Below are positions 60,798-61,329 of a stretch of DNA of 64,000 nt, piece after piece. The translations under genes were made by a program, and so were the position numbers. Numbering within the stretch: the first letter of the stretch is position 1; each line of letters begins with the position of its first letter. The DNA comes from Escherichia coli (GTDB taxonomy: Bacteria; Pseudomonadota; Gammaproteobacteria; Enterobacterales; Enterobacteriaceae): NCBI RefSeq assembly GCF_041886205.1, contig NZ_CP169029.1; one strand, given 5' to 3'. Below the pieces are notes generated by a model. That model searched no databases, had not been told where the DNA came from, and saw only the letters and a program-made list of their open reading frames with translations.

Positions 60798-61329
60798 ATG
60801 AGCTTACTCAACGTCCCTGCGGGTAAAGATCTGCCGGAAGACATCTACGTTGTTATTGAGATCCCGGCTAACGCAGATCCGATCAAATACGAAATCGACA
60901 AAGAGAGCGGCGCACTGTTCGTTGACCGCTTCATGTCCACCGCGATGTTCTATCCGTGCAACTACGGTTACATCAACCACACCCTGTCTCTGGACGGTGG
61001 ACCCGGTTGACGTACTGGTCCCGACTCCGTACCCGCTGCAGCCGGGTTCTGTGATCCGTTGCCGTCCGGTTGGCGTTCTGAAAATGACCGACGAAGCCGG
61101 TGAAGATGCGAAACTGATTGCTGTTCCGCACACAAAGCTGAGCAAAGAATACGATCACATTAAAGACGTTAACGATCTGCCAGAGCTGCTGAAAGCGCAG
61201 ATCGCTCACTTCTTCGAGCACTACAAAGACCTCGAAAAAGGCAAGTGGGTGAAAGTTGAAGGTTGGGAAAACGCAGAAGCCGCTAAAGCTGAAATCGTTG
61301 CCTCCTTCGAGCGCGCAAAGAATAAATAA
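60798..61329 (+). pseudogene. ppa: Inorganic pyrophosphatase with an apparent +1 frameshift (extra G near 60996-61000) splitting the gene into a 70-codon and a 3-prime reading frame
   Basis: ORF 60798-61010 ends ...[10 protein letters not shown] then TGA; the remaining Ppa sequence [16 protein letters not shown]...ASFERAKNK continues in the +1 frame to 61329. Confidence 0.85.

Follow-up and report, generated by a model that had tools for sequence, protein, structure and literature searches.

In wild-type E. coli, the inorganic pyrophosphatase gene ppa cannot be inactivated, and its deletion has been possible only after another pyrophosphatase was expressed (PMC9959109). This agrees with the essentiality that an earlier note, made from the letters of the DNA described here, had attributed to the gene. 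In its intact form (WP_000055072.1), E. coli ppa is a single open reading frame (ORF) of 176 codons. The gene encodes a DGDPVD motif with Asp67, the conserved metal-binding signature of family I pyrophosphatases, for which the PROSITE signature is D-x-D-P-x-D.

The window analyzed here, a stretch of 64,000 nucleotides from an E. coli genome (assembly GCF_041886205.1, contig NZ_CP169029.1), carries a ppa that is nucleotide-identical to this intact gene over its whole length, save for one extra G, and that has an equal neighborhood. However, it consists of a 70-codon piece and a remainder in the +1 frame. Its parts are as follows:

60798–61329, plus strand: ppa as a whole, frameshifted and split by the extra G
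60798–61010, plus strand: 5′ piece of ppa, 70 codons, with Ppa residues 1–66 plus Gly-Pro-Gly, then TGA at 61008–61010
60999–61000, plus strand: +1 insertion within the codon for Asp67 (DGDPVD motif), with GG here and one G in all relatives
60997–61329, plus strand: 3′ piece of ppa in the +1 frame, from GTG-Asp67 to Lys-TAA, with the stop at 61327–61329

That one extra G splits the gene is confirmed. The earlier note had identified the gene as ppa at these outer coordinates, and both ORF reading and the Pfam profile PF00719 support this. Read directly from the ATG at 60798, the 0 frame ends in LDGGPG-stop; the break lies where it had been placed, but after 70 codons instead of about 68. The remaining 110 codons, ending ERAKNK-TAA, follow in the +1 frame, also as previously described. 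PF00719, the family I pyrophosphatase domain, matched the first piece over profile positions 1–51 (E 2.7e-17), the second over positions 50–152 (E 5.6e-37), and a repaired Ppa over positions 1–152 (E 2.5e-60). While the domain match is significant, no single uninterrupted ORF spans the domain together with the D-x-D-P-x-D motif, and DPVD is found only in the +1 frame. The note had proposed alignment to reference ppa alleles as a check. Against the two closest complete genomes, 6EVA and wlxctx60, GG at 60999–61000 is indeed one G too many, and the change from GGTGAC to GGTGGAC is the sole difference across ppa, which is otherwise the WP_000055072.1 allele carried by both. Since the split is one determinate sequence difference, chance is not at issue.

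The gene is in its orthologous place, between ytfQ and chpB/ytfP, and the gene order is that of annotated complete genomes. The neighborhood, ytfQ-ppa-chpB-chpS-ytfP-tamB, is the same as in 6EVA and wlxctx60, and all proteins encoded less than 10 kb from ppa are common alleles. An Rfam search found no RNA element at the lesion site; the matches above the gathering score in the window, none of them near the lesion, were:

43022–43137, minus strand: Mg riboswitch, upstream of mgtA
26409–26484, 53185–53262, and 59425–59503, minus strand: three copies of naRNA4 (REP-type)
25381–25575, minus strand: Ysr276 antisense match inside pepA

The extra G is a private allele. With a 701-nt query, ppa was matched in 5,425 of 5,426 complete E. 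coli genomes, and the best matches were one base shorter than the query. A 71-nt query centered on the site was used so that a perfect match would fall in the band of at least 99% identity, and none of 5,421 complete E. coli genomes did so. The exact 35-mer with the extra G was found in no metagenome contig (the wild-type control 34-mer was found in 53) and had no match in 100,044 species-representative genomes. Among the ChpS-neighborhood loci listed, 10 of 10 carried a 176-aa Ppa. Exact look-up of the truncated products of 70, 85, 110, and 159 aa likewise gave no match on record. A genuine pseudogene, produced by evolutionary gene loss, is not supported, the lesion being private and the rest of ppa identical to the intact allele.

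The extra G does not stand alone. A frameshift in the toxin gene chpB and an intergenic insertion, both absent from the earlier note, are the strongest clue to its nature:

61406–61758, minus strand: chpB toxin gene, frameshifted, in pieces 61501–61758 and 61406–61537
61594–61598, no strand assigned: +2 insertion (CA/AC) in chpB, CACAC where relatives have CAC
61752–62003, minus strand: chpS antitoxin gene, intact (coordinates transferred from locus L001)
62193–62196, no strand assigned: +2 insertion (CG) in a hairpin loop (hairpin at 62185–62206), giving CGCG instead of the CG of relatives

Only the first piece of chpB matches PemK_toxin, over profile positions 1–47. The added AC occurs in none of 3,097 chpB-bearing complete genomes, and the added CG in no complete genome. 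The hairpin, just downstream of ytfP, is terminator-like on both strands; on the minus strand, a wild-type UUCG loop closed by C-G becomes a 6-nt loop with the added CG. A natural allele common to other strains is thus ruled out for all three insertions by these searches.

All three insertions are private, lie within approximately 1.2 kb (60999–62196), and duplicate one or two adjacent bases. When three points were placed at random in 64 kb in simulation, all of them fell within 1.2 kb with P about 1.1e-3. Successive insertions are 594–597 bp apart in reference coordinates (596 and 596 under one equivalent placement); given the clustering, gaps equal to within 3 bp had P about 1e-2 in simulation, a figure that is post hoc. 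Such near-even spacing suggests that the cause was periodic, for example joins between reads or tiles. None of the sites lies in a long homopolymer or multi-unit repeat, where spontaneous E. coli indels concentrate in mutation-accumulation studies. Long-read errors associated with methylation motifs are ruled out, as there is no Dam, Dcm, or EcoKI site at any of the three insertion points.

The rest of the window is clean, which makes the cluster a local anomaly and not part of a general decay. From 46360 to 64000, the window is identical to 6EVA apart from the three insertions; against wlxctx60, the stretch from 35718 to 64000 differs by 5 SNPs and the same three insertions. There are no indels relative to ET201 in 1–17977, and other indels occur only at naturally divergent junctions (versus wlxctx60 and ET201). 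Positions 23521–45116 (21,596 bases) are 100% identical to an independent draft from the same lineage, GCA_012715495.1. A generally error-ridden assembly is ruled out, since near-identical references show no further indels and the independent draft matches the window exactly over 21.6 kb. Import by recombination is ruled out as well, since no SNP lies closer to the cluster than 9 kb; the last SNP relative to wlxctx60 is at 51381, more than 9 kb away.

Other parts of the window have features of their own. All 36 SNPs that separate it from 6EVA are confined to mgtA-treR-treC (40937–46359), with zero in 46360–64000, and the edge near 46360 is a sharp recombination-tract boundary. A variable locus at 17977–19366 adjoins tRNA-Leu(CAA) (19282–19366); the window has only about 1.3 kb there, where relatives carry integrases, type I restriction-modification systems, or phage-like islands. 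A same-lineage draft contig ends at about position 18,747, which suggests a repeat there. On the minus strand, 33521–35116 encodes an intact 531-aa YjgL-like “DNA-binding protein” whose exact sequence is rare (14 contigs); the gene is frameshifted in wlxctx60 and disrupted by IS1 in ET201.

We consider it very likely, from these comparisons of sequence, that the split ppa reflects a local patch of sequencing or assembly consensus errors and is not a feature of the living strain. The extra G is one of three private, packed insertions, so it is most likely a local error; it is private and co-occurs with other private indels in a short stretch, as would be expected of a consensus error. Three bases or base pairs would have been called twice across about 1.2 kb (G to GG, CAC to CACAC, and CG to CGCG), and these over-calls would break ppa and chpB and lengthen the terminator loop. 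Their origin would lie in sequencing, finishing, or polishing. The patch may have had few reads behind it or reads of low quality, or it may contain joins from one read or tile of approximately 600 nt to the next, which would fit the spacing of about 596 bp. The real ppa is almost certainly the intact 176-codon allele of the nearest relatives. Of the alternatives in the earlier note, we therefore favor an assembly or sequencing indel, given a private allele, two other private insertions within 1.2 kb, and a gene that cannot be inactivated. If so, ppa and chpB of this record should be read as intact, and 60999–62196 should be flagged as a low-quality patch in which annotation pipelines would report two pseudogenes, the essential ppa among them.

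Some observations count against this reading. Three errors in 1.2 kb are unexpected in an otherwise accurate window unless the patch was a special case, for example because coverage was low there, a gap had been closed, or a join had been made. Nor do the contexts match the classic long-homopolymer or Dam/Dcm sites of long-read error. In addition, the extra G perfects an inverted repeat, as a genuine template-switch mutation would, but with multiple testing taken into account the match is not significant.

Among the alternatives, it is very unlikely that the insertions are real, that ppa is a true null, and that pyrophosphate (PPi) is hydrolyzed by an enzyme encoded outside the window. Candidates would be the product of another copy of ppa or a pyrophosphatase of family II or of the membrane type that the strain had acquired. 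The published deletion of ppa once another pyrophosphatase had been supplied (PMC9959109) provides a precedent, ppa matched at two places in 1 of 5,425 complete genomes, and in a window that is otherwise accurate a base-call error is not expected a priori. However, neither the 64-kb window nor the syntenic annotation contains a second pyrophosphatase gene, and relative to 6EVA and wlxctx60 ppa has not decayed any further. A true null would also leave unexplained the private insertions 596 and 1,192 bp away, which are not accompanied by SNPs. A duplicated or mobile ppa-chpBS segment, which might have defeated polishing or provided another copy, finds no support in the plasmid-labeled matches: these cover the entire 5.5-kb query and come from chromosome-sized or mislabeled records, not from a mobile ppa cassette. 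These PLSDB records (H83–H90; e.g., AP026530.1 and NZ_CP134663.1) are 0.37–4.9 Mb in size, plus one of 94 kb; they carry the whole ytfR-ppa-tamB chromosomal region and are probably mislabeled chromosomes or chromosome fragments.

It is very unlikely that the sequenced DNA molecules truly carried the mutations while the viable lineage did not. Error-prone synthesis or template switching in an amplification, a cloning step, or a gap-closing PCR could introduce such a cluster, or it could be present only in a dying subpopulation. Three tandem duplications of 1–2 nt in a local cluster are a signature of polymerase slippage or template switching, and there are candidate templates nearby. In ppa, the insertion perfects an imperfect 8-nt inverted repeat, GTCCACCG at 60935–60942 versus CGGTG-AC at 60995–61002, 52 nt away, to give the pair GTCCACCG / CGGTGGAC. 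In chpB, the mutated 10-mer CCACACCCTG (61593–61602) equals a natural 10-mer of ppa (60977–60986), 616 bp upstream. After multiple testing, however, k-mer matches between the mutated sequences and nearby templates are at chance level, and templated mutation from nearby repeats is rejected on this basis. Nothing shows the use of amplification or cloning, and in practice such lesions would look the same as consensus error.

That the extra G is real and that the strain lives with a frameshifted ppa, through recoding or restart at GGUGGACCCGGUUGAC or through a replacement pyrophosphatase, is highly improbable. Such a cell might make a low level of full-length (Asp67 to Gly) or two-piece pyrophosphatase, and the three evenly spaced duplications of 1–2 nt would mark a localized mutational event. 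If true, a natural E. coli would be living without the pyrophosphatase canonical for the species, which would be of real interest for both PPi metabolism and recoding. Nothing found here points to a genuine mutation for which recoding or an additional pyrophosphatase would compensate.

We give least credence, amounting to almost none, to a real frameshift that is bypassed in translation, whether by a +1 ribosomal shift or by termination and restart. The site reads GGU-GGA-CCC-GGU-UGA-C. Candidate shifts are at CCC-G, or at GGU-UGA-C behind a Shine–Dalgarno (SD)-like GGUGG. The SD-like pairing to the 16S 3′ end is −10.2 kcal/mol, versus −12.6 at the prfB site, and the layout is prfB-like, with a 4-nt spacer followed by GGU UGA C and its weak UGA-C stop context. 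However, the wild type has this pairing too, at a slightly stronger −11.2 kcal/mol, so the insertion did not create it, and re-pairing of tRNA-Gly from GGU to GUU would probably involve a mismatch at the middle position. Any +1 shift, at CCC-G or at GGU-U, would turn Asp67 into Gly, yielding LDGGPVD or LDGGPGD. For restart, a two-piece enzyme can be imagined, as the insertion puts the GTG at 60997 in the Ppa frame directly before Asp67, where it overlaps the stop region, but no good SD sequence lies ahead of it. Unlike real programmed shifts, the extra G is found in no relative, and bypass would leave the chpB and intergenic insertions unexplained.

The RF2 gene prfB, with its programmed +1 frameshift site, is a known system that the locus resembles at the level of layout. 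At both sites, a codon with an in-frame UGA C behind it stands a few nucleotides downstream of an SD-like element, and the ORF that follows is in the +1 frame. In the window, however, the shift is not conserved among homologues, re-pairing of the P-site GGU in +1 would probably be poor, autoregulatory logic is absent, and the product would lack Asp67 of the catalytic motif.

Another comparison is with other public assemblies, in which split ppa calls recur at low frequency and at varied positions. An 81-aa C-terminal Ppa fragment is indexed in 70 blocks, versus about 72,000 for ChpS, and when ppa is split in a database record, sequence quality is usually what is at issue. Across ten such loci (L005–L014), the splits are mostly around codons 86–95, probably an ascertainment effect of the 81-aa fragment query; some have indels in all neighboring genes, and others a single indel in ppa. 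Like the window, the error-prone split-ppa assemblies (e.g., UGEX01000002.1, CP092814.1, and low-coverage metagenome contigs) have two ORFs resulting from a single-base indel, and they are isolated database instances with no shared allele. Their N-terminal pieces are 67–110 aa long, none being 70 aa. Several of them have 14–36 gap openings in 4–6 kb, in all neighboring genes, a part of which are natural intergenic differences, whereas in the window the indels occupy only 1.2 kb, and the remainder of the 64 kb is clean.
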